Shown in pieces: positions 7,172 to 42,400 of a DNA stretch of 64,000 nt. Numbering within the stretch: the stretch's first letter is position 1; the number at the start of each line of letters is the position of its first letter. The DNA comes from Marsupella aquatica (taxonomy: Eukaryota > Plantae > Marchantiophyta): positions 12,651,934 to 12,715,933 of the forward strand of contig OZ316899.1 in the NCBI GenBank assembly GCA_973895155.1, given 5' to 3'. The position numbers and the translations under genes were made by a program. The notes beneath the pieces are model-generated. The model searched no databases. It saw nothing but the letters and a program-made list of their open reading frames with translations, and was not told where the DNA came from.

Positions 7172-7318
7172 CCTCTAACTTGTCGAGTTGAACTCCTTGA
7201 GTGACTATCTACTCAAGATCTGATGGAAAAACTCTCCTCCTTAGCTCACAAAACCAAAATTTGACTAGCTACTCCACTAGTCTAAAACAACTCTCACGGA
7301 ACTCGGGCCTGGACCAAC

Positions 7319-7430
7319 GAGGCTCCAAACTCAAGAAATCCCCGCGTGGATCAACAAGGCTCCAAACTTGAGAAATCCTCGCTCGGATTGACGAGGCTCC
7401 AAACTTGAGAAATCCCCGCCTGGATTGAAA
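7319..7430. repeat. 37-bp tandem repeat x3 in the probable 5' LTR region
   Basis: GGCTCCAAACT..AGAAATCC at 7321, 7358 and 7395. Confidence 0.8.
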
Positions 7431-8785: not shown

Positions 8786-8986
8786 CCTTACTGTGAGCGG
8801 GTGTGGCTTCAGCTGGAGGAGAAGCTGATCAATTACCAAGTGGAGAAAATCAACATGCGGTGCTACGGTGAGAAGCCGGATTGGTACAAGCGCATGGTGC
8901 CCTCAAGGTTGCTCCCAACGGTCATGCTGGACGGCGAGCTGCTCACAGAATCTATGGACATCATGTTGATTCTAGAGCTTAAGTTC
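8786..8986 (+). pseudogene. glutathione S-transferase N-terminal fragment, Cys-type (Iota-class-like)
   Basis: PYCERVWLQLEEK..YQVEKINMRCYGEKPDWY...LLP...DGELLTESMDIM matches the GST thioredoxin-fold domain. The first Cys of CPYC and the C-terminal domain are missing. Confidence 0.8.
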
Positions 8987-9150
8987 TTAAGCTTTCACAA
9001 AATCAACTCCGCAGCACTTTGCTGCATACTAGTGGATAAATTTTCAGTCAAAGCATCCAAAACTGACATCCATAAGTGAATATTGCAGCTTACCAAAACA
9101 TTGAAATTCATCTTCTAAACTTTTCTTCTGGATCACAAGAGAAGACATAC

Positions 9151-12218: not shown

Positions 12219-15200
12219 TCATGGATCCATATCATCTACAATTACTGAAGCCATCAAACCCTTCCTCCGTCGTGGGAAGATGGGAATGACGATGGACCAT
12301 CCTCTCATAGTGTGCATCGGAACCATAATACACTGATCCACCTGGCTAGGAAATACTATAGTGTCACTAACCTCAGTCCCAGATGGTGCTACACGAGTTG
12401 TGTCTACCCGATAGAACCCACACTCATCTTTCACCATGGTGGCTCTATGTGGAGGTGACATGATGGATTTGTGCCACCGCACCTCTAACACAATAGTAGT
12501 AAATGACCCAAAGTGAACGTCTAAAATATCCAATATAGTGCCACAATAGGGAATCTCAACATCACCTGGGTCTGTCAACATGAACACTCCTGAGTTACAT
12601 GTACTCTTCTTCATGTGATCTGTCCTCCAAGTGCGAAAGTGGTGCCCTAACTCATACATGTGTGTATGGGTCGTTGCCCACAACCCTGGTCCCCTAATGA
12701 TGTTCTGTACATCAATGGGAATGGATAAGGGTCCATGCGCTGCAAGGAGCCTATCCATGCGCTCCAATGCCCATACGCAAAATAATGCATACCGTCGTGC
12801 AACTATCGGTTGCTGCTCCAAGAATGCACTGCAAAAAATGTATGAATCCATGAGAATATTGCGACCTCATCCACAGAAGTGCTCCTTGAACCCACTCTAA
12901 CTTCTACACACATAGAATGTAGAACAACGTCTATTGTTAGATTAACATATATATAGAGTTGCATATATGTACCTATGCAACTCCCTCCACTGAGACATCT
13001 CTGGGCGATTTCCCAACACATAATTGTGGATCTATAGGCAAAGTATGTTGTCATGTAGTGAACGCTTTTTTGATGCACCCATCAAACGCAACCCACCATT
13101 GTCATCATCTTGTGCCTCTTCCCAAGCTGTGGGAGCTTCTGTGTCCAAACTCCCTATCATCCCTCCGGAATAAAAGAGGCACTCCGACATGATATACCCC
13201 GTTGCCATACTTCCCTCTGGTCGAGCTGGTTGACGCACCATGGACTTGAGCACTTTCATGAAGCGCTCTACCCAATACATCCAACGTGCATGGACAGGAC
13301 CAGCAATCGCGACCTCATCCACCAAGTGACATAGTAAATGCAATTGCGTGTCAAATATGCATGGGGGAAACACCTTCTCCATATTGCACATCACGCGAGA
13401 TGACCTCTCCCTCATCAAAGGAATCTCAGACTCCTTTATCTCCTTAGCGCATACCCACCTATGTTCCTCCTCAAAACCATCAAAGATTTTGTATATCAGA
13501 TCCACATAGGGCCATAGAAAAATGAGTTTGAAATACTTGTTGAATTACATGGCTCCTCAAGCGGTAACAAGAACTTGCAAGAGAGCAATGGAAGAGAGGG
13601 TACGTTATCATACCTAAAAATGGAGCACATCTCATATATAGTCAGACGGAGTAAACGACGCTCCCGGGAATCATCACAACAATGCAACACTGCTGGTAGC
13701 ACATGTTGTATCAACTTGTGATAATCATGAGACTTCAACCCTATTGGGGGTATGTGATCATTCCTTGTAGTGCACCCACAAAAACTAGCTCTGTAATGGC
13801 TAGGGAACTTCATCTCGCTTATCATCCCATTCATGTCCTTCAAAACCTCTCTTGGAAAAATCCAAGGACCAGGAGGTTTCTCCCCAGTACGTGTTATCCA
13901 ACAACTCTTCACTACTCCAACCCTCTCAGCATCCTCTCGGACTCCACGAGTGTCATTCGTCCCATAAATGTGCTTCACCAAGTTCTTAGCAACATTCACT
14001 TCAATGTGCATGGGGTCCAACAACCATCAAACCTGGAGTCTCTGGAAATTGAAATAACATATTGAATCAGTTGCAATCTCTAAATTAAGCATTTTATTGG
14101 TCTAATTTGCTGTAAAGGAACCATGCACTTCTATCACTTACCCTCCAATAAGGCAAGTCCCACATAGCTAAGCGTTGGTTTACTCCACAATCCTTGGGTT
14201 TCAGTAACTTTGCTTCCACCTTCTCTGCCATTTGAATTCGTCCTTCAGCTGAAGGGCCATTAGGACATGGCCGCACTTCAGTCTCTGCCCAATGTGTTGT
14301 GTTTTGTCGCAAGTGGTCATCCATTGCCAACCGGACCCTACTGCCCTCATATGTGGTTTTGTGCAGTAGTCTTGGGTACCTCCCACGCAACTCTGGGCCA
14401 CATGAAGGGCAAGCTGAAAAACCTGCCACCTTCAGGCCATATATTGTCCCCATACCTGCCATTTCATTGAACCATGTTCAGACCACAAATAACCCCAACA
14501 CTTGCATTGTACATGACATTGTGCAAACAATAGTCATTGGGTTGCCCAATGAATTACCTGGACCATCTGTGGTGCAATGAGTGATCATCACCCTCATATT
14601 GAAGGTCCTGCCATTGCCTGCTTCACGAGTGACATCTGTTGTCACTGCTCCAACCTCCCATAGATTATGTAGCTCTTCATAAGCTGGAGCCAAACAGATA
14701 TCAGGATTCTTACAGGCCTTGGGTCCAGGAATTATAGCTAATAGAAGCACATGACCCTTCTTCATTGCCAACCATGGAGGGATGTTTTGATTTATCAAAA
14801 GAACAGGCCAGATGGACTTAGGCTTCCGTCGTTGTTTATACGGGTTCACTCCATCGATTGCCAACCCCAAACAAACATTTCTTGGCTCCTGGGCAAAATT
14901 TGGCCAAGTGGCATCAATGTGCTTCCACGTTGGACTATCTTGGTGGTATTGCATTATCCCTGGTGGGGATTTGTTCTCCACATGCCAAGTCTGTAGTGTG
15001 GATAAGTGCTTTTGTCGGTAGAGATGCTGAAGTTGGGGAGTGATTGGGAAATAACGAAAAACCTGCCAGATCCAATGTAACGTCGTCAATTTGACGACAA
15101 TCACACTAAACGTCCTTCCACACTACGTATTATTAAAACTAACATCGTGGAGGACGACGTTTCTTACATACGATGTACCATGCGACGTTAGTTATTGCAT

Positions 15201-18286: not shown

Positions 18287-20620
<2,334 letters not shown>

Positions 20621-21699: not shown

Positions 21700-24600
21700 C
21701 TACAAACCATTCGCGTTCTGCCTATCCAGCACCAGTCTGACTTCCACAACTATGAAAATGGGCTGGCTACACAGGGTAGACTCCTCTACATGAAACTTGA
21801 AGACATTTATAAACACCCAATACAAATGTTTACAAGGCATATATGGCTTGCCACAAGAATGACGACGGAAGAAATCCTCACAGGAACAGGTTGGGAAGAC
21901 GCAAATTTGGACAAAGTAAGTGTTTGGGGATCGAAGGTTATCGTGGGTCCGGATTTTGAATTGCTTCCCAAATGCAATTCCAATACCCACATCCCACTCG
22001 CCATCCAAAGTCATAGCTTCTTTCCGAGCCGATTCCATTTGTGTACTGTGAGCCAAAGTTAGATTTGATCAAGGTCTAGAGTTTCTCCCATTCCTGGTCC
22101 GAAGGCGTACGTTGGGGTTGGCGAAATTGATTCTTTCAGGAAATGCGTTTACATTAATTCTCAAGTTGAATGGAACAGGTGCATCTCGAGACGTCACAGC
22201 TGTTTGGACCATTGAGACTCCCTGTGCTTCAAGGATCTCTACCTCGACAGGTGACAGGTTGGTCCCTTTCACAACTGGCAAGATATCCGGCACAGGAGGA
22301 AGGCGTTCAACACCACGACGCGGGCGGCTCTTGTAGCATGTTTTGTTTGGGCAGAACCATATCATTTCTGCAATGGGTGTGCCTCTGAAAATGCGATGTC
22401 TGCTGACAACAATGCCGACAACACCTATTGCCGAATGGAACCCAACTTTTTTGACAGGATTTCAACACTCATCCCTCTCAGAATTTCCAGGCAAAGTCCC
22501 ATTGCACTGAGGCCCTGCACCATATTTGGCCGTCCGCCGCAAATGCCAGGTCCCTCTAGGAACATCCATTTCCAAAGGAGTTGACTCTATTGGCAAACGT
22601 TGAAGAACAGCCAGAGCACTGAGTGGGGGTTGCAATGATGTTGCTATTCCTCTAGCTTCAGGGGTGTTCGCGAGGAAATCACTTCCATTCGTTGAAGTGT
22701 CGCTCCCGCCGAGGTCAACTATGGGATCTGTTACATTTGCGGGAAAGGAAGTGAAGACGGTGTTGTTGAGATTCTTCCGTTTGAACCCTTGAGTATTGGG
22801 TGTAGTGATGAGAATGGTGTCATGCCGATGGGAGTCTTGTGGCAAGACAATCCCAGTTGCAAGTCCCTTCCTCTTAACCGACCTTGTGATAATATCTCCA
22901 TTAAGAGGAGAGCTCCTATCCAGATCCAAATCAGCAGAGTTGGAAAGAATCATGTTGGTTGCTTCTTCAAATAACTTGGGTGAACCAGATTGGTCTGCGG
23001 ATTGGAATGCTAATTCCCAGATAGTTGGCCCCTTCCCTGTATTGAGTCCCTTTTGATATGCGTTGTAACCCGCAACTTGTGACAAAGCTCAATTTTGATC
23101 AACTTTGCATGCTTCAAAGAGACCCACCATTTTTTTGTAGCCCATGCTTTCATGGAGGCGTGCCTTGACTCTGACCTGGTACAGTTTGGAATGAGCGCAC
23201 CTTCTTATGCGCTTTTGCTCTGCAATAAAACCCGTCTAGACAAAGTTTAGTTCTTTTGTATAAGCAGCGCCAAGTGCTAGCAATGAGTAGGAGATAATAA
23301 AAGAAGGTTTATTGGTACAAGTTTCTTTTTCTGTAATGTTTGAAGGTTTTTTGAGTGAAAATTAAAGCAGCGCATGGCGCTAGTATAAACACACTGAGGT
23401 TTGACTAATAAATGCATCAGGAAAACTTACCACACAAATGAAATTCCCCCACTAATGCCATCGAACAACCCATTGAGATATCCAACTCTGCAACATCATC
23501 AACTTTCCTGGGACACAGTTTCTCGCTTGCCACCACAACACGATCTCCCTCGAAACTCGATACGCCGCAACAAACGTTGGAGCATTCCGCAGTTTCTCCC
23601 ATAGTTGCCGATGGTCTGGTTGCTTACCCTCCAAAACTCCTTCTGTAGAATGTCGATGGAAAGACTGGTAAAAGTGAAATGCATCAGAGCGTTCAACCCT
23701 CCAAAAAAGACATTGTGAACGGCGATCCATCCAGCCTGAGCATTGTCAACCATAAAACCTTGAATGACAACGTCCTATAACCCATTTTCCTTACAAACCT
23801 CAATCATAATTCTCCACGCTTTCTCAAAGGACTCCATGTCTTCAACTTTTAGTTCGCATGTGAAGATTGTACAAAGAGCTCGGAAGTTGTGATCGTAAAC
23901 GTGTGCATTGAAAGTAAACCAGTCGGTTGTCACTCGCTTCATCACATCAAAACTCACCCAAGTTCCTTCCAATCTTTTGCTGGGTTGCATCTGCCGGAGA
24001 AGATCTACACCAGATCCATGACCCTTGACTGTCATTTTGAATATATGGGGCCTATCTGCTACACAACCCTGACCCGATAGGAGGTACCTTTGGAGGAAAG
24101 AAATGTTATTTGACCTTTGCATCCGAGCTAGGAAATCTAACTCACCACAACCAGCCTAGTCCATTTGAACGCTAACCCCAATGTTTTCGCAAAGAGCTTT
24201 CACGAGCAAACCGGTTGCAGAATTCAAAATACCAGTTGGCTTTGCTAGAGGATTGGCTTCATGATTTTTTCTTATCAAATCCTCAGCTATCTTCTCAACA
24301 CTCCTTGAGAAAACTTTCCTACTCGGATGGTTATGCTCACCTATATGAACTGCGAGCCGAGACATGTGACTACAAGTCTGTGTATCAAGAAGGACTTGAG
24401 GGTACATATAAAACAAGCGAGCAGGGCAAGACTTCACACAGAAAGGAATCTGCTCACAATAGTGACAGACTACACCACCCTCTTCAATCAACAAACCCAC
24501 CATGTGCTGGCCATTGAGTTTAGGAGCACCATGCCAGGCCTTTGCATTGCATCTCTTCTTTCGCTGAAAGTACTCACAAAACTTGTTCCTGCACTTGATG

Positions 24601-25031
24601 AACCCGATACACGTAACCTTACCAAATTCCCAATGTTTCTTTGGATGCACGTTCGCAGTTGTCGGAAAAATTTGGGTCCAAATGTAACAATCTTTGGCGC
24701 GGTCCATGTCACGAAGTCTAAATCCCTTGGAGAGCGTTCCCTCAATGGGAGGCAGTTCAAATACAACATTTCCGTTGTACTTGTCTGGCAAACAAGGAAC
24801 TTGCTCATGCCGGAAGTCCCCTGTCGAGATAAACCTTGACAGTTCACTATGTCTCGTGGCCTTGAGTAAGGCGTCCATCACACTCCTCCGGTAGACTTTA
24901 TGACGACCTCCGGAGGTAGCCACCGGCTCATCCTTAACAAAAGCGGAAACCGGAACTTTGTACTGCAATGAAGGAGTGGGTGCAACATCACCATCTTCAC
25001 TGTCAGATATGTCAACAACAACAACAGGAAT
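21700..25031 (-). pseudogene. MuDR/Mutator-like transposase (GCM/WRKY-like Zn domain, DDE core, C-terminal SWIM), main part
   Basis: SCPARLF...HIGEHNHP; WVSFD, FMVDNAQA, DAFH, SESRHAS; SWIM CSCEDF...CKHLYWV; intron ~23430-23236; several stops. Confidence 0.75.
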
Positions 25032-26612
25032 TGTGATGCCTAGCCAGGAATCACTAGGCCGGTTTACATGGTAAAAGCAGGAATGTACCCTAGAAACACC
25101 TTAGTATAGTAACAAGACAAGGAAAATATAAACAATTAAGGGTGACAATGGAACCCGGGCCGAGGCCGGAAGTAAGGACGTCGGGGGAGAGAACACGATT
25201 AGGGTTAGGGCGCACTAAGCATCGGTGGCTAGGGGTGACCAACGGGAGGGAAGACCAGAGGAGGAGAGGGGTAAGGACCGCTCGCGAGGAATGGTGGCTC
25301 ATTTGCAAGCACGAACTGGGCAAACGACTACGGGAGGCCAAATACTGTCAGCTGCTTAGGCAAGCACTCTGGGTGGGAACAGATACCAACGATCGAGTCA
25401 AGGAGGGTATGAGCAACGTCAATCAAGCGGCACATTTTTGGGGATGCCTGTTCGAACGGGCAACTGAGTACATTGGGACTTACGAGGACGAAGAATCAGA
25501 GAGAGCAACTCGAGAACGGCAGGAGCTCGCTCGACTGTGGGAGCTGCAGAAGTTTGCCTTCTTAGGAGGAGAACTCATCAAGGCTGAGTTCTTGTGGACT
25601 CCTACTGCCAATCAGCTCGATGACCTTCTGTTTTGCGAAGACAGAATCGTCGGCATTCGGGAAGCCATCAACCGCTGCAACGACGTGCACTGGGAGTTGA
25701 AGGGTAGCACGGAGGGGTGGACAAAGGCAACTGTGCTAGGAGAAACATCCACGACAACCGAGATGAAGAGGAAAGGAAACAACAACGAAGAGGCCACCCT
25801 AGCAAAAAGAACGAGGTTGGCGGCACCAAGGAAGCTAGCAGAGCAGCAGAGCAGGAGGCAGGGAGAAGCCGAAGAGGAGGAGGTTGATCCCATCAATGCC
25901 ATTCCAACAAAGGGTGACACCTGGAAAGGCTGGGCGGCGACCCTACCAAAGGAAGTGCAATTACATTTTGCACGGGAGGAGGATGCATGCTTTACGGCCA
26001 TGCAGACCAAGAAGTACCAGGGCTTCATGGCCGAATCCAGCTTGGAAACCTTCGTAAGATTACCATGGCTGAAGCCGGAGGTGCCGGACTCAGACTTATT
26101 AGAATTTGTGGGATCATGGGAACCCGAGACCAATTCCACGAGGGTGTATGGGAAGGATTTCTATCTCACTCCCCGGGTGATTGCCGAGGTGTTTGGCTTG
26201 CCGATGGGTAATAAGACCAAGGTTGATACTAGGAAGACCTTACCTGACAAGGAGTTCCGGTCGTTCCCAGGACCATCAACAAAGAATGGCTTCTTCCGGA
26301 ACACCTGCACCAACCCACACATCGGAGAGATGATCAATTTCTTGCGGGTGACCATGCATTGTAACTTGCCAAGGGCAGAGATCGGCAAGGCTCAGGTCTA
26401 CCTGGCAGAAAGGCCAGACCCAAGCCGGGATTACAACGGGTACCTCCTCAACCAACTGAAGAAGATCTTGAAGGAGGAACAGCAGGTGATCGGCGTGGGA
26501 AGCGTGTCCCGGCTTGGCTATCACATGCCGTTGTTGTGCCGGTATGCCAGAAGTCAAATCTTTGCCCCAGTACTTCCCCTATCGGCAAGGGCACCGGAGG
26601 AGGTTCTGGAGC

Positions 26613-28112
26613 AGAGGCCGGCAACAGAAGAGCCCAACCAGCCTGCCAGTCCTACAATCGAGCAAGTGTTTTGACCAAGGAAAGAAGACTTGCCGATGCA
26701 GCAATCAGGCATGCAGAATCTGCTGAAAATGCTGGAGAAGGAGAGAATGGCACCAGCAACGGCAACGGCACCGGTACAGGACACTGCCCCAGAGGCCGGC
26801 CTAAGCCGACTCAAGAGGGAAAACCCCTTTACCGGAGCCAAGGAGAGAAGGAGGCGGGACACAAGCCGGGAGTGCAAATGTATGTGGGAGCCTCAAGCCC
26901 CGAATCGGAGGCAGAGCAGCCTAAGACTCCTTCCCGAGGAGAGCAGAGGGAGAGGACAGCCTGGAACCCATAGGAAGAACAAGAGCCCGTGATCTGTGAG
27001 GCCATTTTCACGGCAGGACCAGGGGAACAGAGGGGGAAGCCGGGAGTCCAAGCAGTGGAGGAGGCAGTGGAGGACTACAGCAATGATAACTTTGGCTATG
27101 GGTCGGATCATCATGTTCCAGGAGTAAGGACCTGTGACCAATTTATCTCCACGCTTCCAAGAGTAGTTCGAGGGGACCCCACCCAACAGAGTAGCCTCGA
27201 GTCTCCCCCACCAGAGGTTGCTCCCTCGAGCTTTGACGGCATAAAGCAGACGGCACAAGAATTTCAGGAGCGACTTAGGGAGGAAGAGAAAGCAGCCCTG
27301 GCTAGGGAGAAAGATTTACCGGGAGGAGATTGGCCGGAGGACATCAGGCGGCTTGCCAAAAAAAGAGGCCGGCAACAGAAGAGCCCAACCAGCCTGCCAG
27401 TCCTACAATCGAGCAGGTGTTTCGGCCAAGGAAAGAAGACTTGCCGATGCAGCAATTAGGCATGCAGAATCTGCTGAAAATGCTGGAGAAGGAGAGAACG
27501 ACACCAGCAACGGCAACGGCACCGGTACAGGACACTGCCCCAGAGGCCGGCCTAAGCCGACTCAGGAGGGAAAACCCCTTTACCGGAGCCAAGGAGAGAA
27601 GGAGGCCGGAACAAAAACCGGGAGTGCAAATGTATGTGGGAGCCTCAAGCCCCGAATTGGAGGCAGAGCAGCCTAAGGCTCCTTCCCGCGAGCAGAGGGA
27701 GAGGACAGCCTGGAACCCAGAGGAGGAACAAGATCCCATGGTCTGTGAGGCCGTTTTCACGGCAGGACCAGGGGAACATAGGGGGAAGCAGGGAGTCCAA
27801 GCAGTGGAGGAGGCGGTGGAGGACTACAGCAATGATAACTCCGGCTATGGGTCGGATCATCATGTTCCAGGAGTAAGGACCTGTGGCCGATTTATCCCCA
27901 TGCTTCCAAGAGTAGTTTGAGGGGACCCCACCCAGCAGAGTAGCCCCGAGTCTCCCCCACCAGAGGTTGCTCCCCCGAGCTTTGACGGCATAAAACAGAC
28001 GGCACAAGATTTTCAGGAGCAACTCAGGGAGGAAGAGAGGGTAGCCCTGGCTAGGGAGAAAGATTTACCAGGAGGAGATTGGCCGGAGGACATCAGGCGG
28101 CTTGCCGAAAAA
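26613..28112 (+). repeat. ~751-bp tandem duplication found only in the 5' LTR of A
   Basis: AGAGGCCGGCAACAGAAG begins at both 26613 and 27364; single copy in the 3' LTR. Confidence 0.9.
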
Positions 28113-29386
28113 AGAAGCAACCCTCTTGCCACCGTAGAAGAAATCCGCAAGGCGGCTTGGGAATAGAGGCCGAGGTGGTTGATGCCGATGACTTCTACTT
28201 ACTCCACCTATGCTAAAGATAGAGCCATGGAGTACGGGGAGATGTGTGGGGACCTGGCGCTCAGCATCTTTGGGGAGGAGTTGGAGCAGGGACCTTTCTA
28301 CCAGAGGGAGAGGTTGGAGAAGCACCGATTAGAAGAAGCGGTGGCTTTGGAGAGAAGCAAGAAGGACGAGGTCATCCGGCGGCTTAGGGAGAAGGAAGCC
28401 GAGGTGGAAGTCATGCAGGCGGCCAAGAAAGCCCAAGATGAGCTGCGGATTAAGCGGCATGAGCTAAACATCATGCAGGGGCAGTTGGATACCGCTCAGT
28501 CTGACAATCAGATTATCAAAGATAAACTGACTCGGACCCAAGGAGAGTTGGCCGGCGCAGTCAAGGAAAGAAAGAAATGGAAGCGAGAGCTAAGGGACGC
28601 AGAGGAGGCCCACTTAGCAACCAACAATCGGGCCATGACGGAGAACCAGAGAAGGGAGAGGGCATTAAAGGGGGAACTCGAGGATATCCGCAGAGCCCTT
28701 GAGCAAAAGGAGGCCGAGTTAGGGAAATCCTATCAAGGGATTATTGCATTGCAGCAGGAGCTTGCGTCCCTGACGGCCAGCTTCAAGGCCGACCTCCGTG
28801 AGAAAGACGACCAGCTCGACCAGACTTATGCCAAGATGAATAAGATGGAGTCTGAGGTCGTAGCAGAGCTCAACAAGGAGCTAAGAGCAACCCAGGAGGA
28901 GAGGGCTACCTTAAAGAAAGAATTGGAGGAAGCCAAAAAGGAGCTGGAGGAGGCGCGCAAGGACCTGGATGAGACCCAGGAGGAGTTGGAGGAAATCACA
29001 AGGAAGATGGAGAACCTACAGCGGCGGGCCGACAACCAAACGGAGCGGCTGAAGAAACAAGCCGCAGTATTTAAATGCTTGGCTTCATCAGGTCCAACTC
29101 CAATTGGGGCAACCCAGTTACCAGGGGTAGTATTGGCCGAAGGACAAGCCGAGACACTCACCCCGGTGCCGGAGGTAAGTGGCAAGGGGAAGGAACCTGC
29201 TGTCAAAATAGGGAAGAAGAAGAAGCGGAAACCTTCTAGGTCTGGGAGTTATACGGCTTCTCAAGCCGTTGTGACCGAGAAGATAAACCCGGCACCAACC
29301 TCCGGCATCGACACGGCAGTGGATCCACCAGTCCTAGGAAGTGGGGATGGCAAGGCCGAGGCCGGGACAACCAGTAATGAAGCCGA

Positions 29387-31614
29387 TGTCCTGAGGATAA
29401 GCAAAGAGGTGGGAAAGGGCCTCAAGGGACACGCAGGGTGTATGGCTGCTTGAGATAGGAAACGGTTGCAAACAAGACAAAGTATCTACCCTAACCTTTC
29501 ATCCACATCATCACAAGCAAGCAAGCATGCTTTCGAAACTCAAGCCATTTACATACTCATATCCAATCACAATCAAAATAACTAGTTCAAGCTTCCCAAT
29601 GTAATCCTCACAAGTCTAAGCCCAACATTCAATTGGTCACCATTCCTTTTCCAACACTTGATTGCACACAATCCCTTGCAACCCTCTAAGGTACACAAGT
29701 TCAAGCTTACATCAATGTGGTCAAGTTAAGGGTCACTCTTGGTTGTGGCTAAGACAAGTGGGACATCCAAAGGTATGCAAGGCATCTCTATGCACCATTC
29801 AAACATCCAACTGTTGAAACATGGAAAACTACTTTCGAAAAGTGACCTAGGGTTGGTCAACAAACTCCTTAACAAACATGGAATTGACCTTAGTCCCTTC
29901 CTCTAGTAGAACCACCAAGTACAATCCACAAACAACCCATTCCATCAATCGAAAATGCCTTCACTCTTTACTCTTGCAACTTCCCTCATGTATAATAACT
30001 ACTTTCGAAAGTACCTTCATCCAACCCATCTACTTTCAAAAACACCTTCAAGCTCACAACAACATTCGAAAATGGCATGAAGACATTCATTCTAATTATT
30101 CCATCACTCATAGCCAAAGCAAGGCATCAACACACATCTCAAAAACGAGGATACCTCTCCTCTAAATGCATAGCAAGAAGGCACATGTAGCATCATGGCC
30201 TCCAAGTAAAAACATGGGTCACAAGCAAGACCCTCCTAGCAAAAATGAATCATCACCAAGTCTAATCATCAACCAAGCATTCAAAATCCCTCCATAGCCT
30301 ATCCAAGCTTCAAAACCCTAGTCTCCTTATCTCATACTTCCTTCTATCAACCAAATCTACTTTCGAAGCTTCAAGTCAAGGAGTTTACAAGAGAGTAGGC
30401 CTTCTTAGTGAGCCATCTCTAATGCAAGACTCCCAAGCTTCAACAAGATTAGGTCTCATCTCCTCTAAGCTTTTGAAAATCTCCTACAAGTCCATTCTCC
30501 TCAAAACTTGAAGCAACAAACCTACATTCGAGTATGCCTTCTTGTGGGCAATCTCTCATGCAAGCTCCTTATACTTCCTACTCACATCCTACCTCCTTCC
30601 TAAGGCTTTGAGTCAGCCTCTCCTACATTCGAAACCTCTCTCCAAATCCCTAGAAAAACCGTCACAAAACTCAATCTCTTCACATTCAAAGCTTCTACTC
30701 CATCTATCTCTTCACAAAATCGCCTCTACATCTCCTACCCTCAAAATCCTAAGGCCACGGCCAAGGAGGAGGGCTCCCCCTTCACTCATGCCTCATGCTC
30801 GAGCTCCCCTCAAGAGGTTCGCTCCTACAACTAAAAATGGGACTTAACACTCCAAAATGGCAAAACGGCAGCACTTCAGCAGCATCTAACCTCCGAACCC
30901 TTGGCCACTCGAACTTCCTCCTTTAGTACCCAAGTGGGAAGGCCCAGGGCACCCACAAGCTCCTCCACTTATGGTTTTAATCCTCGTTGAATCACAGCCC
31001 TCGATCTCACACCAATTAGATCAAACGGCCAAAAATGAGCCAAAAAACCCCTCCTTAGTAACTTGTAAACCAAATGAGCTTCGACCTTTTTGAAAAAGCC
31101 ACGACCTCCACCAAGCCCTAACTCACATCTCCACCTTCAATCCAAACCATCCATTAACCAAAACCAAGATCCACCGTTGAAGTAGATACATTGAATCTGG
31201 TCCATTTAACACAAAAATCTGAATCTGGTCCAAATCTCACAAAACTGATGCACTTGGACCAAACCCTCTTACATGCCTTGAACCTGGTCACCTCCTCCAT
31301 GTATTCAATGAACCTGGTCACCATGTTGCCAAAACCCTAAATACCTTGCTTGTTGAGCAAGCAACCTCCATTCCACCAATCCGCCAAATGATAACTTAAT
31401 CACTGGTCACAAATGAAAAACATACCCCACAATAGTAACAAGGGTGGGTAGGCTTGACCTCATCCCTACCTTGACCCTCATAACTCTACTTCCTCCTTCA
31501 CCTTGGTCAAGTTAGCTCAAGTCAAGTCAACTTGCCCAAGTTAGAAGCAAAATAGGTTTCAACTTCCTTCACAAAACATGAGGATTCCTCCTTTAGGATG
31601 GAAACCTCATGACA
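29387..31614. mobile_element. solo LTR C (2,228 bp, unrelated family) inserted in the LTR-A gene
   Basis: Ends TGTCCTGAGG/CCTCATGACA; 4-bp TSD CCGA; empty site GAAGCTGAGGTACC in the 3' LTR (~61290); no convincing coding region. Confidence 0.85.
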
Positions 31615-32732
31615 CCGAGGTACCAGATCCTCCACTAGAACATGTCGGGGAGGCCGTGGCCGATGCTGAGGCCGAAGCCGAGGGTGTACCCAGTCAGGCC
31701 GATGAAGAGTTGACTCGGTCCGGGGCAGGTAATCTGTCAGAGGACGGACCAACGGCAGTGGCTGCGGAGGAAGCATTGGGGGCGTCCATTGAGGACCAGC
31801 CACCGGGGTCGTGACGGTGTAAGGGAGTCGTCCCTTTTAGGGAGGGTGGACGTGGAGGTAGGAGGCGTGAGTGGGCAGGGCGGGCGCTGATCTCCAAGTT
31901 TAGACTAAGGATCAGGACCAGGAGACTGCCCTGACACTTAGATTAGTGGGATTGCGGATCCACGAGTAAGGGCGACACTTATGCTCCTGCCTCGCTGTAC
32001 ATAGGTAGATTATAGTTAGGTAGATTACAGATAAGTAGATTAGGCTTACGCTGCAAGGAATCAGGCGGATCCACAACCAGGATACGTACCTGGGCTGCGG
32101 GGAGTTCAGGGCCTCTTCTTTAGCAAGTTTTTAGTTGCACCAGCAGGGCTGGGATCAAGTAGTAAGAGAAGCTCTCGGTTAGTTATACAGTGACCCTTGT
32201 GTATATTCATGTTTCCTCATGCCTAAGAACTGAATAGAGTTGACCTCATGGCTTAGTTTGCAGAGCTTATGTATGAGATGTACTGTTTGTATGGCAAGTG
32301 CATGGTATAACTCAGTCAGAAGGAGTCATTTTGCTATTTGTGTGTCGCATTAACTTGTGTGAAGAGTGCCCACATCAATGAAGGGAAGTAGCAAGGGAGT
32401 GAGAGTTGGATGTGTTGAGCTGAGAGAGGTCTTAGCGGCTTAACCAAGCCAATTGAGGATCATTCCGGCGGCGGAATCCAAACATACCTAATGGAAGACA
32501 AGGAGAGAAATACAAGGGAGGGCCTAGAATAGGCCGGCTAAGTATCTCATGACCCGATGAAGGATCTGTCCAGTATATGTGTGTAAAATGTTAATAGTAG
32601 TAGTAGAGGTGATTAGCAGCGTCCCATGCCGCTAAGCCACGGAAACGGCCTCGTCAAGGATGAAACCTGCGGGAATCGGCTTGTGCGGGGGGGGTTCTTG
32701 GGTTTGGGGAGCCATGGGACGCACCACATTTT

Positions 32733-32750
32733 TGGCGCTAGATGGAGGGG
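32733..32750 (+). other. primer-binding site of element A (tRNA-Asn-like)
   Basis: TGGCGCTAGATGGAGGGG, 4 nt after the LTR; one mismatch to the complement of the plant tRNA-Asn(GTT) 3' end as I recall it. Confidence 0.8.
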
Positions 32751-32764
32751 GCATTTTCTAAGCC

Positions 32765-35256
32765 GTGAGATATGAAGTTAGGAAGGAAGCGTGGGTAATG
32801 ACTGAAACTACGCCAAGAGAGGAAAGAGCGATTCAACGGGAGAGAGCTCGTCTGCAGCAGCTCGTCGGGTGGCATGATACACAACGACTGAGAGGGGCAG
32901 AAAGAGCTAGTAGCTCTGTAACTAAAAGTGGCATCGAAGAATACATACCAGAAGAAGGGTGGGTAAGGAGAAGTGAGTCTCCAACCGACATGGGGGAACC
33001 AGAGGCACGGCCAGATGAGAGGCCAGGGACCAGACTGAGCCAACGGTCGCATATTCATTACAAGGCCTTTCATGGAAGAGGAGATGAGGATCCGGACAAA
33101 TGGTTGGATGACTTCGAAGGAACCGCTGCAGCAAATGGAGAATCGGCCATCAAGATGCAAATTCTTCCCGGCCTGTTCAAGGGTGAGGCTAGGCCTTGGT
33201 ACAGAGCATTGGACGTAGAAGATCAAGCCATCTGGAATACTTTCAGATCACTATTTATCAAGGAGTTTCGACCCATTGGAACTTCAGAGTTAGCAGTGCT
33301 GAAGTTGGGACAACTTCGGTTCAAGGAGAACAAATCCTTTAGGAAGTTCTTGCAACGCTTCCAAAAGCTGGTAAGACGTACAAAGACCAATGCATCTGAA
33401 GGTATGCAACTTCAATGGTTAGTGAATGCTTTGCCACAGAAGATGAGTTTTGCAATTAGGAAGGAGAACCCAGAGACTTTAGCCGAGGCAATTAAGGATA
33501 TTCAATTATACATTAATGCAGATATCACAAGCCGAAAGAAACAGCTTAAGTCTGAGAGTTCCTCATCGGAGGAAGGATCACCCCATAAGAAAAAAGATAA
33601 GAAAAAGAAACATTCTAAGAAGTCAAGAAGTGATAACTCAAGCTCGGATAGTGGGAGTAGCAAGAGTGAGTCATCTTCTAGTTCTGAAGAAGAAAAAACT
33701 AGGAAAAGGAAGGACACAAGGAGGGGAAAGATGAAAGTCAAACTAGAGGCTAAAACACCAGATAACATCGTAGCCCTTACCGAGTAGCTTAAGGCTATAA
33801 TAGCAGAGGTAAAACCAAAGAAGAAGGTAGTACAGGAGGATAGCTCTGTATGGTGTGCCTTATGTTATAAAACCGGACACCATAAAGATGCGTGTCCTAA
33901 ACTTAATACTAGTCATGTTTGGCATGTGGCTGAGGTCAGACCATGTCAGGGAGAAGTAGAGTACTTTTTAGGGGATGTTGCTGATAGTGTTTTCGGCATC
34001 AGTGAGACTGGAGCACGAGACCTATCCAACAGACCTGCATCTCTCTGGTCAGGATTAAGGAACAAACTGGGAGAGATGTATCCTCGGATTATTCAGAATC
34101 CGTCAGTACCTCCTAGGCCAAATGTGCAAATATTTGCGGCATGCTATAATTGTGGTCAACCTGGTCATTTTGCTAGAGAATGCCCGAATGCACGCAAACA
34201 AGGTGATGGACAACCAGCTTAGCTATGTATGGGATGCCGACAGGAGGGTCACATGCTAGGACAATGTCCTACTTGGTTGGCAGGCCTGGCCGCAAATCAT
34301 AAGCTCTTGCTAGTCAAGGTTTTACCGCCAGGTACTACCCCCGGAGGAGTTCAAATCAACCACATTGAACTTGGATGGCAAATAGATGCCGAAGCAGAGT
34401 TCGGACCATCCGATGATGAGGCCGAGGCCCTATCAACCTTCTCAGAGGAGGATTTGGATCATGATTGCTACTGGGTCTCTACTCGATCTACCAGAAGGAA
34501 GGAAAGGTGGGATGGGCTGGCCAAAAATAAAGGGAAGGATAAGGAAGAAAGAATCGACTCCTCGTCAACATCAACAAAAGGGGAAGGAAAGGCGCCGGCA
34601 ACACATGTAAGCCATGAGCCCCCCCATGAGCCCAATCCTTCACAGGAGAGCGACTTCAATCGAGATCACCCTAGGTTGGTCTACCCCTCTATTACGGCTA
34701 GTGTTAAGGAACAATTGCGAGAATTAGAAACCCTGGAGAATACCGAAGCTATAGCCAAGGATGTGAAACGAGCAAAAGCGTTGTTTGCTTTGGAGGATCC
34801 AATGGCTATGGAAACCAACGTGGAAAAACAGGCTGAAGCCAAGATGAAGACACCGCTAGAAGAGAAGCCGATAGTTCCCTATGACCTGGCTAAAGATGTG
34901 CTAGAATCTAGAGTCTCGGCAACCGTAGGTCAACTATTGAAAAATAGCCCGTACTTCCGGAAGCAGTTAAGGAAGGCGATTCTTGGCAAGACAAGATTAC
35001 CCAAGGTAGCAACCAAATCCGATGTGCTCATGATAGAAGAAGATCAAGGAGCCCCAACATTACCATTAATGATTCAAGGAGAAATATTATTGCGAGTACC
35101 CATTGATGGAGGATCCGGGGTATGTATTATGATTGATTCAACAGCAAAAGGATGGGGTCTAACGCCGGAGATGACTGGAAGAGTGTTAAACATGGCCAAT
35201 GGGTATCAGGTCATTCCCACGGGAGTGTTAACCGGCATCAAGACTGAGATAGGAGG
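32765..35256 (+). pseudogene. element A gag (3 CCHC knuckles) and protease N-half
   Basis: FHGRGDEDPDKWL gag motif; CALCYKTGHHKDAC, CYNCGQPGHFAREC, CMGCRQEGHMLGQC; IDGGSGV; two TAG stops; interrupted by element B at TEIGG. Confidence 0.9.
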
Positions 35257-35615
35257 TGTGACGCCGCCGGTACGGCGAGTAATGAGTAATTCAGTCTGGA
35301 CCGCGCTTAGCACGCACGTTAGGGGTATCTTAGGCCGCTATTATTAGCATAACGACAGTATTTAGGTAACCATTATGAGTAGGAAATCATTAGTTAATAA
35401 GGGGAAATCATGTTCTGACTGGCGGCGTGTTGCCATTCGCACGCCCGGGTTGCGAGCGTGGAGGGGCCCCTCCCTCGGGTCCGTATAACGAACTTAGGGA
35501 AGCGGCCACTGACACGCGCTGACTCAGACCGGCGGAGTGGCCGGTACACTACAAGCATGAACGGTTCAGCCTATAGGCAACGAGGAGACGTCGGGTGATC
35601 GACAAACCCTCAAGG

Positions 35616-35623
35616 TATAAAAA
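35616..35623 (+). promoter_or_regulatory. TATA box upstream of the LTR-B gene
   Basis: TATAAAAA followed by a CT-rich leader and ATG at 35724; conserved at 50393-50400. Confidence 0.55.
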
Positions 35624-35723
35624 GGGAGCCGACCCTTTGTAGTGCACCAGTCCATCAATCCACACGCCAGCTTCGACCCCAGCTCTCTCGTTCTCTCTTA
35701 GTTGCCACTGCTATCTCCTCTTA

Positions 35724-38347
35724 ATGTCGCACACGATCCTCTCCAGTTTGGCCATTCGATTCTGGACGGAGTTCCTATCTACCGGAAGACACTTGGCTGA
35801 CTCATTGAAACACGCCAACCCGCGCCAATACGAAATCGAACGCGAGTACGAGAGAGCCATCTGCCTAGCAGGACGACACCACTATATCCTTAACTTTGAC
35901 TACCCGTCTTAGAGCGAGCTTTACCGACCAGCAGAGGTATCTGGGTACTTCTTCAACGGAGACAAATATATCGGTTTCTAGGAAGCATTGCTTTGGCTTC
36001 CGGACGAGGTCTTCAATATCCTGGGTACGATCGACTTGCACCGACATCACTTCGACCACATCCCTGCTCAGGTTCGGGCTATCATCAACAACGAGTCCAA
36101 CGCTACCCGTTCGACAAGGCCGTCTGCACTTGCTTCGGAGAACTTCTACCAGCACCTGCAGAGCTTCATGGGAACTAGACCCTCAACCGCCGGCGTCGGC
36201 CCAGTCGACCCCATACCCATATCCGCACCAACGCAGACTCAGGCTCAGCTTCAGTCTCAGTCTCAGCCTAGCCAACCCCACCGCCGATCGCCCCGCCTGT
36301 ACAAGTACGCTCCGTCATCAACGCTATGGACCTTAGCGACGACGACGAGGCTACCCCACCCTTGCTCAGGCGGCCCAGAGGAGCAAACACTCAAGGGGCC
36401 AACACTACAGTGTCCCCTCTCCATGCTCGGACCCAAGGAGCGGCTCCAGCAGACAACACGGTGACCGTGGCCGCCCCGGGCCCAATACTAACGGCGGTAG
36501 CACTACCTATGCCCGATCGAGAGGATGGGGAGGTGTCACCCTCCCCGAGCCAGTCACGGGGGAAGAAGAGGAAGGAACCCGCCGCTGCATCCGGGTTACC
36601 ATTGGCCACGGTAGCCGCGGCCAAGGTGACAATGCACCGCATGGGGGAAAACGTGCATAAAAACATCCTCCATCCCAAACATGCGGTGTACCTGAAGACT
36701 CAGGGATTTGAGCACCTCGCCTCTCTCCCCTGGAACACTTGCAGGTACTACGGGGAGGACATGACGGAATTCGTCAAGAATTATGATGACGCACGTCAAC
36801 ATACTCGGCTGCGGGGAAGGAATATGTCCCTCACGGAAGAATGGCTCAAGATGATCTTCGGGTTACCCGAAGGTGACCACCGAGTCAAATCATGGGCTCC
36901 CGGGGGCAAGGGAGCCAAGTACCAATCCTCAAGTTTTCCCTCAGAGGGAGCAGTGGACAATGGGTTCGTGATGAGGACCTGCCTCATCCCCGAGATAGCT
37001 GAGTGACTGGAGTTCCAAAGGTATGCCCTCCACATGATGGAACCCCAGGGGGAGATCTCCGCTGCCCAGGTTATCCAGGTCGAGAACTATCGACCTAGGA
37101 AGTGCGCGTCGTACTTTGCTAAGAAATTCCATGAAGAGATGGAGCGGCGAAGAAAGACGCTATACATTGGCGGGAAGGCGTATTTCGCTAGCCACATCGA
37201 GATCATTCTCGAGTGGTACGTTCGGTTTGATCGACGAACCCTTCCCTATGTCAACGTTACAAAGCTGGTCCCAGCTAGGTGGGTTTTCCCGGCCTTGGAG
37301 AGACGGCCCCAACCCGAGGCCCGAAGTCCAGTGGACACGCAGGCTTCACCCACCCCACCTCCACAAGTAGCTATAGTCGTGACCGAGGAGGTACCGGATG
37401 GGTCGGTAATTGCAACCGTAGATGCGATCCAACAGGCCAGGCCAAGTACAGAAGTTGGTACAACGGAGGCCTTACTCGAGCCCGGGTCTCCCAAAGACCC
37501 ACCGGTGGCTATTCCGGAGAACCGGACATTGCTGCAGGAGGACACTCCAACCCCTTCCAACACTACGTCCCCAGGGCTGGATGTCACTGCCCCGGCCCCC
37601 GCGTGTGTTGACGTTTGCCCGTGCCCAACTCTGGACAGGCACAACCTGGACCACCCGGAACTCTTCGTACCGGGTACATTTCTGAACGGCCTTCTGGGAG
37701 ATTTCTCTCATCAAATTGCCCGGGATACCGGGGAGTTCATGGCCCGGAAGGTAGCCTGTTTCTTCAATCAGGAGTTGGTTGTCGTAGTAAACGCAGGCCG
37801 GGCCCAGTCAGAGGCCCTTCAGAGGATAGAGTGGTACCGGGTGGAGTCCGTATACTTAAAGAACAAAGTTGCGGCTCAAGAGGCTGAGCTTCTACAACTA
37901 CGACCCAAAGTTGCAGCCGCCGATGAGTTGTTAGCAAAGGCGCACGCCCTTACCGCCCTAGCCAAACAGGCCAAAGCTGGGAACGAGGCCGAGATTGCAC
38001 GACTCCGGAACCAGATTGACAGTTTGAAGAATCAAACTGTCATCTGGCAGAAAGACCTGGAGGATGCCGAAGAACGGGCCCAGCGGGACACTACGGAGAT
38101 AGCCACGCTACAGGCCAAAGTGGCGCGGCTCCAAACCGAAGCCGAGAAGCAGGACCAGCTGGCGGGCAAGCTGACGAGCGACGCCCAGCAGCTGGAGGAG
38201 GCAGTGGAGGAGACGGACGCGGCAAAGCGAGAGAACGAATCTCTGCTGGACCAAGTCCAGCTCCTCAAGGCGGACAACGACAGACTTCATAAGCAACGGG
38301 ATGGCCGCTCCCACTCGGGCGGCTCTGGCAAGCGTGCCAGGCATTAG
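35724..38347 (+). pseudogene. LTR-B-embedded gene (~875 aa), 5' LTR copy
   Basis: Frames 35724-35912, 35988-, 36326-37006 and 37034-38347 join across point stops and one frameshift, none of which are in the 3' copy. Confidence 0.85.
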
Positions 38348-39259
38348 CGACAGAGTAGGAATAGAATAGGGTTAGGAATAGCTAAATCAGGCTATGGGGA
38401 CAAGAACCTGCCCTAGTTAGAGTAGCACCGCCATGCTGTCCAGTCTGCGTAGGTTAGGATCTTCTAATAAGACACAGCCGTTTTTTGGCCTGACAGTCAG
38501 ATTAGTTAGGACCTAAGTCAGTGAATCTTTGGGCGGGAGGACACTCCGTTCCTTGGCCCTTAGTATTTAGTGCACCCCTCGGTAGAGGCAGGGTTGGGTT
38601 TTTTTAGTCTCAGTATTGGACATCCGCGGTATGTGCGGGGAGTCCCGACCTCTGGGAGTGGAAGAGTACCAAGGGGAGGGTGTAAGACTAAGCTTATTGG
38701 GCGAGTACGGAGCCGGGTTCCATTGTAGTGTACACCCTCGACCTCGGACCTGTTCACTCCAGAGCATTCGGGTCAACTAAGTGTACGCATATGTCTCTTA
38801 TGGAGTAAAATCCCTTCCCGTTATTTCCTTCGTATAAATTGAGATTTTATGCTTGTGCGTATGTATGTGTGTGAATCTCGTGTATAGGTGCCAACGCTTG
38901 GCCGAACGCACTACCCAAGTAGTGCACGAGGTGCAGCTTGCGTGTACGTGGTTGCGAGCCCGGGTTGAGCACCCATTCCACCAAAATCCGGATCGAAGGC
39001 GGACAATATGAAGGCTTAGAAGCCCTTAAGCCAGGGTCGATCTTGCTATCGATTGAGGTACGTTCCGGCGGCGGAACACAAATCATACCTAAGAGGTGTC
39101 CGTATATGATGATAGGCGCACTTAGCGCTATTTTATGTAAGTTGGGTGCATTCCGTGCCTCCCTCCCTGCCCGAACCCTCATTTTGACAAAGGTTGTGCC
39201 TATTTAAGCCAAAGCCCGGAGTAAGGCCAAGGCTGACGACGTGACATAGGCTTTGTTTT

Positions 39260-39277
39260 TGGCGCTAGATGGAGGGG
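39260..39277 (+). other. primer-binding site of element B (identical to A)
   Basis: TGGCGCTAGATGGAGGGG, 13 nt after the LTR end. Confidence 0.8.
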
Positions 39278-39492
39278 GCACTCTACGTGTAGTAGAGGGG
39301 AGACATGTGCGGGTGCACCTGGGCAGAATACACCAGGCCCGTGTGAGTTACTAACCATCGCGTGTATATGAGTAAATGTCCGTCACTCGTTCTCAAGCAG
39401 CCTACTTGAGGAGATTGACTAGCGAATGAGAGAGTGCAACCACAGCAAGCTCCGACTCTTTAGGATCGGAGGATTCGCAATCACCTCGGCAA

Positions 39493-42400
39493 ATGAACAT
39501 ACCACCAGGACCCTCGGGGTCCGGTCCAACCGGTCCTGCTCCAGTTCCTGCTGCACCACCGCCACTAGTACCTATGGCAGCCACCCCGCCGATGGCCCGC
39601 GTTGCCCAAGCTCCTCCACAAACATCGCAACGGTCGCGGTTTCATTATCGACCTTTCAAAGGGCATCATGGGGATGATCCGGATGAATGGTTGGATGAGT
39701 TTGAAGCCACTGCTAAGGCTAACGGGGAAGACGCCATTAAGCTAACTGTCCTCCCTGGAGTGATGCGGGGAGAAGCTCGTCCATGGTACAACTCACTGCC
39801 ACCCGGTACTACATGGGCACAATTCCAAGTTGCGTTGCTGCAAGAATTTTGTGCTATTGGATCCGAGCAACGCTCTTTATTAAAGATCGGCCAGCTTCGC
39901 ATGGGAAAAAAAGAGTCCCTGCAAAAGTTCATTCAAAAGTTTCAGAAACTTGCTGCCAAGATACGGCCTAGGCCTGGTGACGCACTCCAGCTTACGTGGT
40001 TCCTCCATGGTTTGCCCACGAATATGCAATTCTGGGTGCGCCAGAATAACCCAATTTCAATGCAAGCAGCCATAGCGTGCGCCGAAACCTACCGGGAGTC
40101 CACCTATAATTCTTGGCGAAGCCAGCGGGCACACCGCAAGAAGGGCAAGTACGAGACCTTCAGTGACAGTTACTCTGAATCAGACGACGAGAAGAAGAAG
40201 AAGCGCAAGAAGAAGAAGAAATGCAAGAAGAAGAAGAAACATCGTTCGACCTCGTCCAGTTCGGAGACAGAATCTAGTTCAGATTCAACTTCAAACAGCG
40301 TGTCCTCCACCACCAACTCATCGGGAAGTGATTCAGAGAGCAAGAGCCAGAGCAAGAAGAAGAAAAGGAGGGTTAAGAAGGAGGGGAAAATCAAACCCCG
40401 TGCTTGAAGAACGATACCCGATCCAAGGCTGCCGAAGCAGACAAGCTTAACAAAATCACGGATCGCCTCAAAGCACTGTCAGTACATCTCGCGGAAAAGC
40501 CGGTGGAGAAGAAGAAGCCATCTGAGATCCGAGCCCATGCGTGGTGTTCAAAGTGCTTCCAATCCGAGCATGTCGTGCAAGAATGCCCAAGATGGAAGAA
40601 CCGAGTTCACCAGGTGGAATTAGATGATGTCGACAACCCGGGACCTGAAGCGGAGTCCACGGAGTATTTCTTTGAAGACCCTCCTGATTCGGTGTATCAG
40701 ATTTCAATGGTGGGTCCGCGTAACTTAGCAGGTAGCACTGCATACCCCTACCCAAACAATAGCCGAAGTTTCCAAGTTATCAGTAATCCTAGCATTACCC
40801 CTAAACCAGGGATTTGGCGATCCTCGGTTTGTTACAACTGTGAGAAGCCAGGCCACTTTGCGAGGGAATGCACAGAACCAAGACGCAGGGGGATGGCCGT
40901 GGCATGCCACTATGTCAAGTCTGCAAAATGGAAGCTCATTCCATGGCCAATTGTCCATTGGTAATAGCCGCTCGAACAAATGGAGCAAGACCAGCTCAGG
41001 GCGGACCGGCCACGAGCGATGCAATCGTCCAAATGACTGTTGTGGAATGGCAAGATGACAACACCGAGTGGGTGAATCTGGTGGATGTGGCGGAGCACCC
41101 TAATCCATCTGACGAGGCTGAGTGCTACCGAGTGTCAACAAGAGCCGAACGGAAGGAAGAGAAGCAGGAGGAGAAACGCAGGAAAAAGCAAGATACTACT
41201 CCGGTGCAGCCAGCGATAGACATACCCCCAGAGAAAGATGATGACTACCGTAGGGACGACCCGAAGCTATTTTTCCCCCGCATCAAAGAAATGGTAAAGA
41301 AACAGCTGGAGGCCTATGAAGCTCGAGAATACCAGAAGGCAATCGATAAGGACATCAAAGCAGCTGAAGCCGCCTGACGACAGGAGCAAGAAAAGCAGGA
41401 GGAAGGCAAGCAGCAGCCGAAGGAAGAAAAGAAGGAGGACTATGATATTAAGGAAGACGTGAAGAGTTGCCCGGTTACAGCAACAGTAGGACAACTGCTA
41501 CAAAACAATCCACAGTACCGACGGCAACTGAGGGAGTTGCTTATGGGTCGATGACGGAGGCGACTACCCCGTGTTGGGATCGCGGATTGCAACATGATAT
41601 GCGAGGACCTGGGAGCGCCCGACATCTTGATTGAAATAAATAATTGTACCATCAAGATGGTTCTCGTGGACGGAGGAGCAGGCGTCAACATCATGACTGA
41701 AGAAACATCAGTCAAGTTATGATACCTCACGTATCAACCCACGGCCCGAGCTATCAGATTAGCAAATAGGGCAAGGGTCCTCCCATTAGGCACGCTCACA
41801 CGGGTGCTCACTCTGGTGGGAGGGGTGGAGTTCTATCTCAACTTCCTAGTCATGAGGAAGGTTCGGCCCTCCTCTTATCCGGTCCTCCTAGGCAGGCCGT
41901 GGCCATACGGTGGCCGTGTAGTCACGGATTGGGGAAAGAAGGAGCTACGGTTCGGGACACCCACAGTACGGGTATCATGGGCAATGGACGATTACCAGGG
42001 CAAAACTCCACAGGGACCCGAGGAATATGATTCGGAGACCTCGGAGGAAGAGGAACTCAATATGATTGAACTCATCTCGTCCCTGTCCGAGGAAGATGTC
42101 TTTGGAGTTGAGGCAACCCGGGAAACACATCTCCTGAATTACCCGAAGGCTGCTATTGAGTCCACCCCGAGCACCTCCACCGCCCGGGATGAGGAAACGC
42201 AAAAACAACTGATCAATACGGAGGACACAGCTCCAGCTAAGCAGGGCGCCGATGTTGCTTCTACCAGTGCAGAGCCTCGTGACCACGAACCGGCCAAACA
42301 ACCGCCCGATGCCAAAAACCTGAGACCAAGACATAAGAAACGAGTTTCCTGAGATCCGTCCATCCCACAATTGGAGGAAGTGACTCCAATCCCGAAACCA

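Follow-up and report, generated by a model that had tools for sequence, protein, structure and literature searches.

Two Ty3/gypsy families of the liverwort Marsupella aquatica were found to carry a long gene inside the LTR itself, and the conserved core of its product is predicted to fold like VANC21 of Arabidopsis. On the evidence of a structure model, the core family is best read as a new bryophyte branch of VANC/PMD-fold nuclear DNA-binding proteins. As to what the gene product does, we lean towards a nuclear, family-specific DNA-binding factor with a VANC21-like core that would counter silencing.

Nested elements in the window

Self-comparison and boundary reading of the window (the whole stretch analysed, 64,000 nucleotides of contig OZ316899.1, assembly GCA_973895155.1) revealed three nested insertions: element A, element B inside A, and a solo LTR-A inside B. 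A and B are Ty3/gypsy families with true LTRs (TG..CA ends, 5-bp TSDs, PBS and PPT), LTR-A being ~4.67 kb and LTR-B 3.99 kb long. Their parts are as follows.

25032-62406 (+): element A; TSD GGAAT at 25027-25031 and 62407-62411
25032-32728 (+): 5′ LTR of A, broken by a ~750-bp internal duplication and a 2.2-kb insertion
29387-31614 (no strand assigned): unrelated 2.2-kb TG..CA insertion in the 5′ LTR-A; 4-bp TSD CCGA
32733-32750 (+): PBS of A, identical in B (39260-39277)
32762-35256 (+): gag of A (capsid, zinc knuckle) and the beginning of its protease region, as far as the B insertion
35257-54028 (+): element B, inserted in the protease region of A; TSD GGAGG
35257-39246 (+): 5′ LTR of B, 3990 bp; TATA-like boxes at 35616 and 38833
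39430-50033 (+): gag-pol of B, broken; the integrase 3′ end holds the solo LTR-A, and pol reaches the PPT and 3′ LTR
45281-49965 (−): solo LTR of a diverged A subfamily; TSD ACCAC; K2P 0.14 to LTR-A3 (the 3′ LTR of A)
50034-54028 (+): 3′ LTR of B with the second gene copy; TSD GGAGG
54804-57752 (+): pol of A with RT, RNase H and integrase; it crosses the PPT and stops just inside the 3′ LTR
57702-57737 (+): PPT junction of A, 31 of 36 nt identical to the B junction (49998-50033)
57738-62406 (+): 3′ LTR of A with the third gene copy

The PBS of A and B is one that we take to be tRNA-Asn-like. With Pfam, gag, zinc knuckle, RT, RNase H and integrase were recognised in the two elements; neither a chromodomain nor an extra RNase H was among the matches. 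A gag-RT-RH-INT order with neither of these domains and with a 5-bp TSD is that of OTA elements without aRH, going by the table of lineages in PMC6317226. By their sequence, the host elements would fit Athila or an aRH-less Tat (Tat Z), and Tat Z2 of liverworts is also reported to be without aRH (PMC13468544). K2P within LTR pairs is 0.039 for B and 0.032-0.048 for A. Pol of both elements crosses the PPT and enters the start of the 3′ LTR, which leaves no space for an ORF between pol and LTR.

The 2.2-kb insertion in the 5′ LTR-A is probably a solo LTR of another family; NCGN target sites are described as typical of Phygy (PMC6317226). It is strongly depleted in CpG and CHG (o/e 0.28 and 0.32), the LTR-A/B regions having a CpG o/e of 0.64-1.07 and a CHG o/e of 0.85-1.09, a gap for which age or lineage could be as good an explanation as anti-silencing. 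The ~750-bp tandem duplication (26613-28118) occurs in the 5′ LTR-A only, with a K2P of 0.058 between units. Elsewhere, the window holds an open 727-codon frame at 2-2185, by eye resembling a Ty1/copia pol at its RT-RNase H end; more gypsy-like fragments at 3800-7500 (−), with a gag-like stretch at 6280-7026 by eye and Integrase_H2C2 at 3834-4301; a fragment of a glutathione S-transferase N-terminus (8555-9079); CACTA transposase fragments (Transposase_21, DUF4218) at 12219-15122 (−); a (GA)n microsatellite of ~100 units (20200-20396); and a Cys/His-rich ORF of 314 codons at 24156-25100 (−), which was severed by the insertion of element A and has no Pfam match.

The LTR gene and its product

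Between its TG and CA ends, each LTR holds one long ORF, sense to gag-pol, whose start lies ~380 bases (A) or ~470 bases (B) from the LTR head. At ~1130 codons in A and ~870 in B, it fills ~66-73% of an LTR of 4.0-4.7 kb. Each element has two copies of the gene and the solo LTR one; all five in the window are broken, the cores at 25952-26581, 48418-49047 and 51406-52074 being free of stops.

25409-31814 (+): LTR-A gene, 5′ copy; broken by a stop at 26672-26674, frame changes and an insertion
25412-25726 (+): N-terminal helical domain of this copy, common to A, B and liverwort homologs; profile 27.5 bits, shuffle maximum 4.7
25952-26581 (+): conserved core of this copy, predicted VANC/PMD-type fold; 94% identical to the modelled solo copy
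35724-38347 (+): LTR-B gene, 5′ copy, ~870 codons; three stops and a frame change
35745-36062 and 36623-37291 (+): N-terminal domain and core of the 5′ LTR-B copy
46189-49590 (−): LTR-A gene, solo copy, the best kept; 1133 codons, one stop
49255-49590, 49183-49233, 48418-49047 and ~46711-47415 (−): N-terminal domain, bipartite NLS-like segment, core and coiled coil of the solo copy
start 50500, core 51406-52074 (+): LTR-B gene, 3′ copy; broken
start 58115, core 58643-59272 (+): LTR-A gene, 3′ copy; six stops

The product reads, in order, as N-terminal helical domain, NLS-like linker, core, disordered linker and coiled coil, with NLS-like patches N-terminal and coiled-coil-like segments C-terminal to the core. 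A hydropathy scan of four window reading frames found no 19-residue window above 1.6 as would mark a transmembrane segment (maxima KD19 0.90-1.31). An earlier, sequence-only reading of this DNA had described just such an NLS-like patch and C-terminal coiled coil and the lack of a transmembrane helix. Basic segments recur in homologs, positions 83-116 being net positive in 38 of 48 rows and positions 161-204 in 34 of 41.

Homology and selection

The same reading had proposed that the A and B proteins share a conserved core, and the alignment bears this out. By BLASTP, the two cores are identical at 48 of 184 positions (26%; E 1e-18) with no large gaps; the Smith-Waterman score of 184 was reached by 0 of 1000 shuffles (mean 29.6, maximum 54; z 32.7). 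The A protein it quoted agrees letter for letter with 25952-26581 (+). Its B quote, given as 36720-37080, is a mosaic: the 5′ copy has an in-frame stop at 37004-37006, where the quote follows the 3′ copy, as it does at one other residue. A second domain common to A and B, at the N-terminus, was absent from that reading. Six homologs from outside the window were picked by eye, and a profile of their first 115 residues scored the A N-termini at 27.5 and 25.3 bits and those of B at 43.2 and 47.1, with a maximum below 5 in the control (250 shuffles each, 210-229 scored). The relation is significant by profile only, the pairwise A-B alignment of this domain not being significant (one of the two tests was in the wrong frame).

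Identity between A and B falls from 69% in RT-RH to 44% in the capsid and 26% in the core. Such faster divergence of the core between families is expected for a family-specific factor. The gene of family A was under purifying selection. Its core has a dN/dS of 0.10 between the 5′ LTR-A copy (A5) and the solo copy, with 36 of 50 differences synonymous, against ~16 under neutrality (0 of 1500 simulations reached this value), and dN/dS between A subfamilies is 0.22 for the N-terminal domain and 0.26 for the coiled coil. The A5/A3 pair, which split after insertion, looks neutral (8 of 21 differences synonymous, p ~0.38), and the B pair is borderline (11 of 22, 6.7 expected, p ~0.05).

An unindexed HMMER search of 1.84 billion representatives returned 65 homologs of the core at E ≤0.001, to which word-indexed searches added none, one of them giving just two proteins that were already known. 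Twenty were looked up; the nine with a species name are all from liverworts (seven from Calypogeia fissa, two from Riccia sorocarpa) and are annotated as unnamed or hypothetical proteins. A tree was built of 34 cores, with 30 shorter rows left out; in it A and B belong to separate supported subclades, each with different neighbours, and Calypogeia fissa carries several further subfamilies; deep branches are unresolved. The two Riccia homologs (P0054, P0059) are annotated with a DDE_Tnp_4 (Harbinger-type) domain, so the core is also found outside LTRs, which suggests that a DNA transposon carries it too. In metagenomes, 460 pattern matches to the core yielded no confirmed case, and a sequence-profile search of the PDB gave nothing relevant.

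Predicted fold and family membership

The A core was modelled from the solo copy with 63 sequences (pLDDT 91.8, pTM 0.88). Over 48,161 representative chains, VIA-align found a single one above Z 5, the VANC21-DNA complex 9LNK (Z 8.9, which barely clears the range that the tool labels "may be a common arrangement"; rmsd 3.9, 199 of 210 residues aligned, 8% identity), the next reaching Z 2.1. Foldseek likewise ranked VANC21 (9LNJ) first (TMq 0.52, prob 0.60, E 0.43), with TMq ≤0.19 in the other listed rows. The predicted model, which covers the A core only, therefore has the VANC domain fold, at 8-11% sequence identity to VANC21; no PMD chain appears among the listed matches of either tool. A viral fold for the core was rejected (best E 0.047, unnamed, rmsd 18; none at E ≤0.001). 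The N-terminal domain gave a model of pLDDT 62.6 that matches generic helical bundles only (best Z 6.3).

Sequence models place the protein differently. No Pfam model matches the window cores, and neither PF10536 (PMD) nor PF09331 (DUF1985) reaches its cut-off in the window proteins or the 65 homologs; ATHILA (PF03078) has no match in either set. Transposase_32 (PF20167) scores 17 bits, against a cut-off of 45, in 2 of the 65 homologs and in none of the window proteins. Neighbours in the ESM Atlas, at the level of leads only, are Transposase_32 (0.89) and ATHILA (0.88) for A, and PMD and DUF1985 clusters (0.85) for B. By the defining tests of these families, the LTR protein is not a member of the VANC, PMD or Athila ORF families. 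A structural homology of VANC and MAIN is reported (PMC13547354), as is one of the PMD-C of MAIL1 with the DUF1985 of VANC (bioRxiv 2024.09.27.615353). Taken together, the structural match, the Atlas leads and the published kinship speak for a single superfamily, in which the core is a branch outside all Pfam models, and from the model we regard kinship by fold with the VANC/PMD superfamily as very probable. The sequence-only reading, which had assigned the core to the PMD, Athila and plant transposon protein group, is thus borne out by fold and Atlas leads and not by Pfam membership; its preference for a nuclear over an envelope role agrees with VANC21 being the only clear structural match.

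The LTR tail and the placement of the gene

The LTR DNA of A and B, which had been described as looking unrelated, has a 40-nt motif as the sole stretch common to both tails. Identity is also seen just before the 3′ LTR, in the 31 of 36 nt of the PPT junction, a stretch that also codes for the end of pol.

32452-32491 (+): 40-nt tail motif of A; hairpin or palindrome TTCCG-N4-CGGAA at 32463-32476
39052-39092 (+): 40-nt tail motif of B; hairpin at 39063-39076
45529-45542 (−), 62141 and ~53845: other copies of the motif

In both families the motif sits 184-266 nt from the LTR 3′ end, and its A-B score of 36 was reached by none of 300 shuffles (maximum 32). From its sequence, TTCCG-N4-CGGAA is a candidate RNA element or factor-binding site. 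The motif occurs at 44 metagenome loci, none with a PBS, gag, pol, core or N-terminal domain, and these are therefore chance matches. A hammerhead suspected by eye was dropped, since Rfam on the window gave one match, at E 0.93, and no ribozyme.

The gene occupies the same position, on the same strand and with the same domain order in both families, and PPT junction, PBS and tail motif are shared. For these reasons its LTR location was likely inherited from a common ancestor of A and B, as had been suggested before, a comparison of two families from one window. At 38671-38688, and at the matching place in the 3′ LTR-B, a PPT-like purine run is followed by TGT, which could be the remnant of a shorter LTR-B. 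As a relic inner PPT that would mark a shifted LTR boundary it was not accepted, this being the one candidate in B (38671) and the A tail having none.

Discussion

An anti-silencing factor encoded in the LTR, the reading towards which we lean, would work as follows. Transcription would run from a promoter at the LTR head to polyadenylation in the LTR tail. The protein would oligomerise through its coiled coil, enter the nucleus, bind short motifs in the LTRs of its own family and counteract, in cis as well as in trans, DNA methylation or Polycomb silencing by the host. Recombination between LTRs would remove gag-pol and leave a complete expression cassette, which a solo LTR would keep because the gene lies within the LTR. 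B has a TATA-like box ahead of its ORF (35616), as do two of the three A copies (25127), the box being altered in the A3 copy. The second TATA-like box of B, at 38833, leaves two placements for the ORF, in U3 with a promoter of its own or in a very long R; with either, a solo LTR would keep promoter, ORF and 3′ end. A sigma-70 promoter scan was set aside as inapplicable to a plant.

Published work on the fold describes effects in both directions. VANC is reported to bind non-coding DNA of its own family and strip silent marks (PMC10398659), and PMD-C proteins to sit on DNA motifs and oppose Polycomb (bioRxiv 2024.09.27.615353). In contrast, the host proteins MAIN and MAIL1, of PMD fold, are reported to promote silencing of some loci, their mutants releasing silencing (PMC5418596), which counts against fixing the direction of effect from the fold. 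Sharing the fold shows no function. Also counting against the anti-silencing reading are the Foldseek E of 0.43, the 8-11% identity to VANC21, the lack of VANC-type motif arrays, the five broken copies and the borderline selection in B.

We also considered a chromatin or DNA binder of VANC/PMD fold with another job, be it an LTR transactivator, a self-limiting repressor or a tether directing integration to elements or heterochromatin. The evidence from fold and NLS applies to it equally, as do the MAIN/MAIL1 mutants, and a scan of the non-coding LTR parts, taking in three A and two B copies, all old, found no VANC-type tandem or enriched short motif arrays, the mark of VANC targets, and no k-mer above the shuffle maximum, the lone tandem unit being one of 15 bp x2.8 in the LTR-A tail. 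The insertion of B in A and of solo A in B would fit repeat targeting, although such nesting is expected in any repeat-dense region. In the literature covered, moreover, the one TE-encoded protein of this fold whose function was tested is described as anti-silencing (PMC10398659, bioRxiv 2024.09.27.615353), and we rate another job as possible but rather doubtful.

A role in handling RNA or the particle, as in genome export, packaging or reverse-transcription chaperoning, for example via the tail hairpin, appears unlikely. The 40-nt hairpin motif alone being common to the two LTR tails, and the basic segments and long coiled coil of the protein, would suit such a role; the structural match, however, is a protein solved on DNA, and a site common to A and B is no better explained as the ligand of two proteins that are 26% identical than by a host factor or an RNA structure.

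Functionless cargo, that is, a captured host gene or nested transposon fragment copied with the LTR, might be suspected from the five broken copies and from the DDE_Tnp_4 domain adjoining the Riccia homologs. It is made quite improbable by the low dN/dS of the A subfamilies in all three domains, by a placement, strand and domain order that agree between two families whose synonymous sites are saturated, and by self-comparison, which showed no inner terminal repeats around the ORF. An envelope-like or movement protein, as which Athila-type 3′ ORFs have been labelled (PMC7264820), is very improbable despite the lead-level likeness to Transposase_32/ATHILA clusters and the coiled coil, given window proteins without a hydrophobic segment, only 8 of 68 homolog sequences marginally above 1.6 (maximum 2.08), the NLS-like patches and no viral fold match at E ≤0.001.

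Among known systems, VANC21 of VANDAL21 (Arabidopsis; DUF1985) is the closest in predicted fold, over 199 of 210 residues, and is likewise a TE-encoded accessory protein with a coiled coil (PMC13547354) and fast divergence between families. VANC is, however, carried by a VANDAL/Mutator-like DNA transposon and described as dicot-specific (PMC13547354), whereas the gene studied here lies inside the LTR of a liverwort Ty3/gypsy retrotransposon, and its product lacks a DUF1985 HMM match, has an extra N-terminal domain and came with no tandem target arrays that we could find. PMD proteins (MAIN/MAIL1/MAIL2) are linked to the core by the published structural kinship of VANC and PMD (PMC13547354, bioRxiv 2024.09.27.615353) and the Atlas lead of 0.85, and PMD-A is reported to be encoded by gypsy elements (PMC5418596); unlike them, our proteins do not match PF10536, and the published PMD phylogeny covers angiosperms (PMC5418596). 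The Athila extra ORF (PF20167, PF03078) resembles the LTR gene in its host element, a non-chromovirus with a 5-bp TSD and no extra RNase H, in its coiled coil, in the Atlas leads of 0.88-0.89 and in the weak Transposase_32 matches of two homologs. That ORF is described as lying between pol and the 3′ LTR (PMC7264820), whereas here the gene is within both LTRs, pol abuts the PPT and scores fall far under the Pfam cut-off.

In architecture only, MMTV sag offers a parallel, an accessory gene in the LTR U3 that survives in solo LTRs (PMC4667437), though in an animal retrovirus, with an unrelated protein and function, and without the gene filling most of the LTR as it does here. Long LTRs together with an accessory ORF are also reported for Retrosat2/RIRE3 (LTR >3 kb, ORF0), Ogre and Retand (PMC3485330, PMC6317226, PMC11963269), but their ORFs are described as preceding gag or as lying antisense in the interval from pol to the 3′ LTR, and not as taking up the LTR (PMC3485330, PMC11963269). 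Phrase searches of the literature, in which subscription journals are thinly covered, found no report of a plant LTR-encoded gene or of a VANC-fold retrotransposon protein. Gypsy-encoded PMD and Athila ORFs were already known; what would be new is the placement within the LTR and the VANC fold in a retrotransposon.

In the literature covered, the plant sequence-specific anti-silencing systems (VANC, TnpA) are all reported from DNA transposons (PMC10398659, bioRxiv 2026.08.24.746577), and accessory ORFs of LTR retrotransposons are described as having no known function (PMC7264820). A VANC-fold protein in a retrotransposon would offer a concrete, testable function for such ORFs. Extending the fold to bryophytes also bears on the host or gypsy origin of PMD, presented as an open question in PMC5418596. 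Tentatively, one may go a step further and propose that the liverwort gypsy LTR is a self-contained anti-silencing gene, with two copies per insertion and a solo LTR supplying a VANC-type protein in trans, and that the fold predates angiosperm PMD and dicot VANC. If this is true, retrotransposon proteins had the VANC/PMD fold well before either of these arose, which would favour a transposon origin of MAIN/MAIL1. Solo-LTR formation, usually thought to disarm an element, would here retain the gene.
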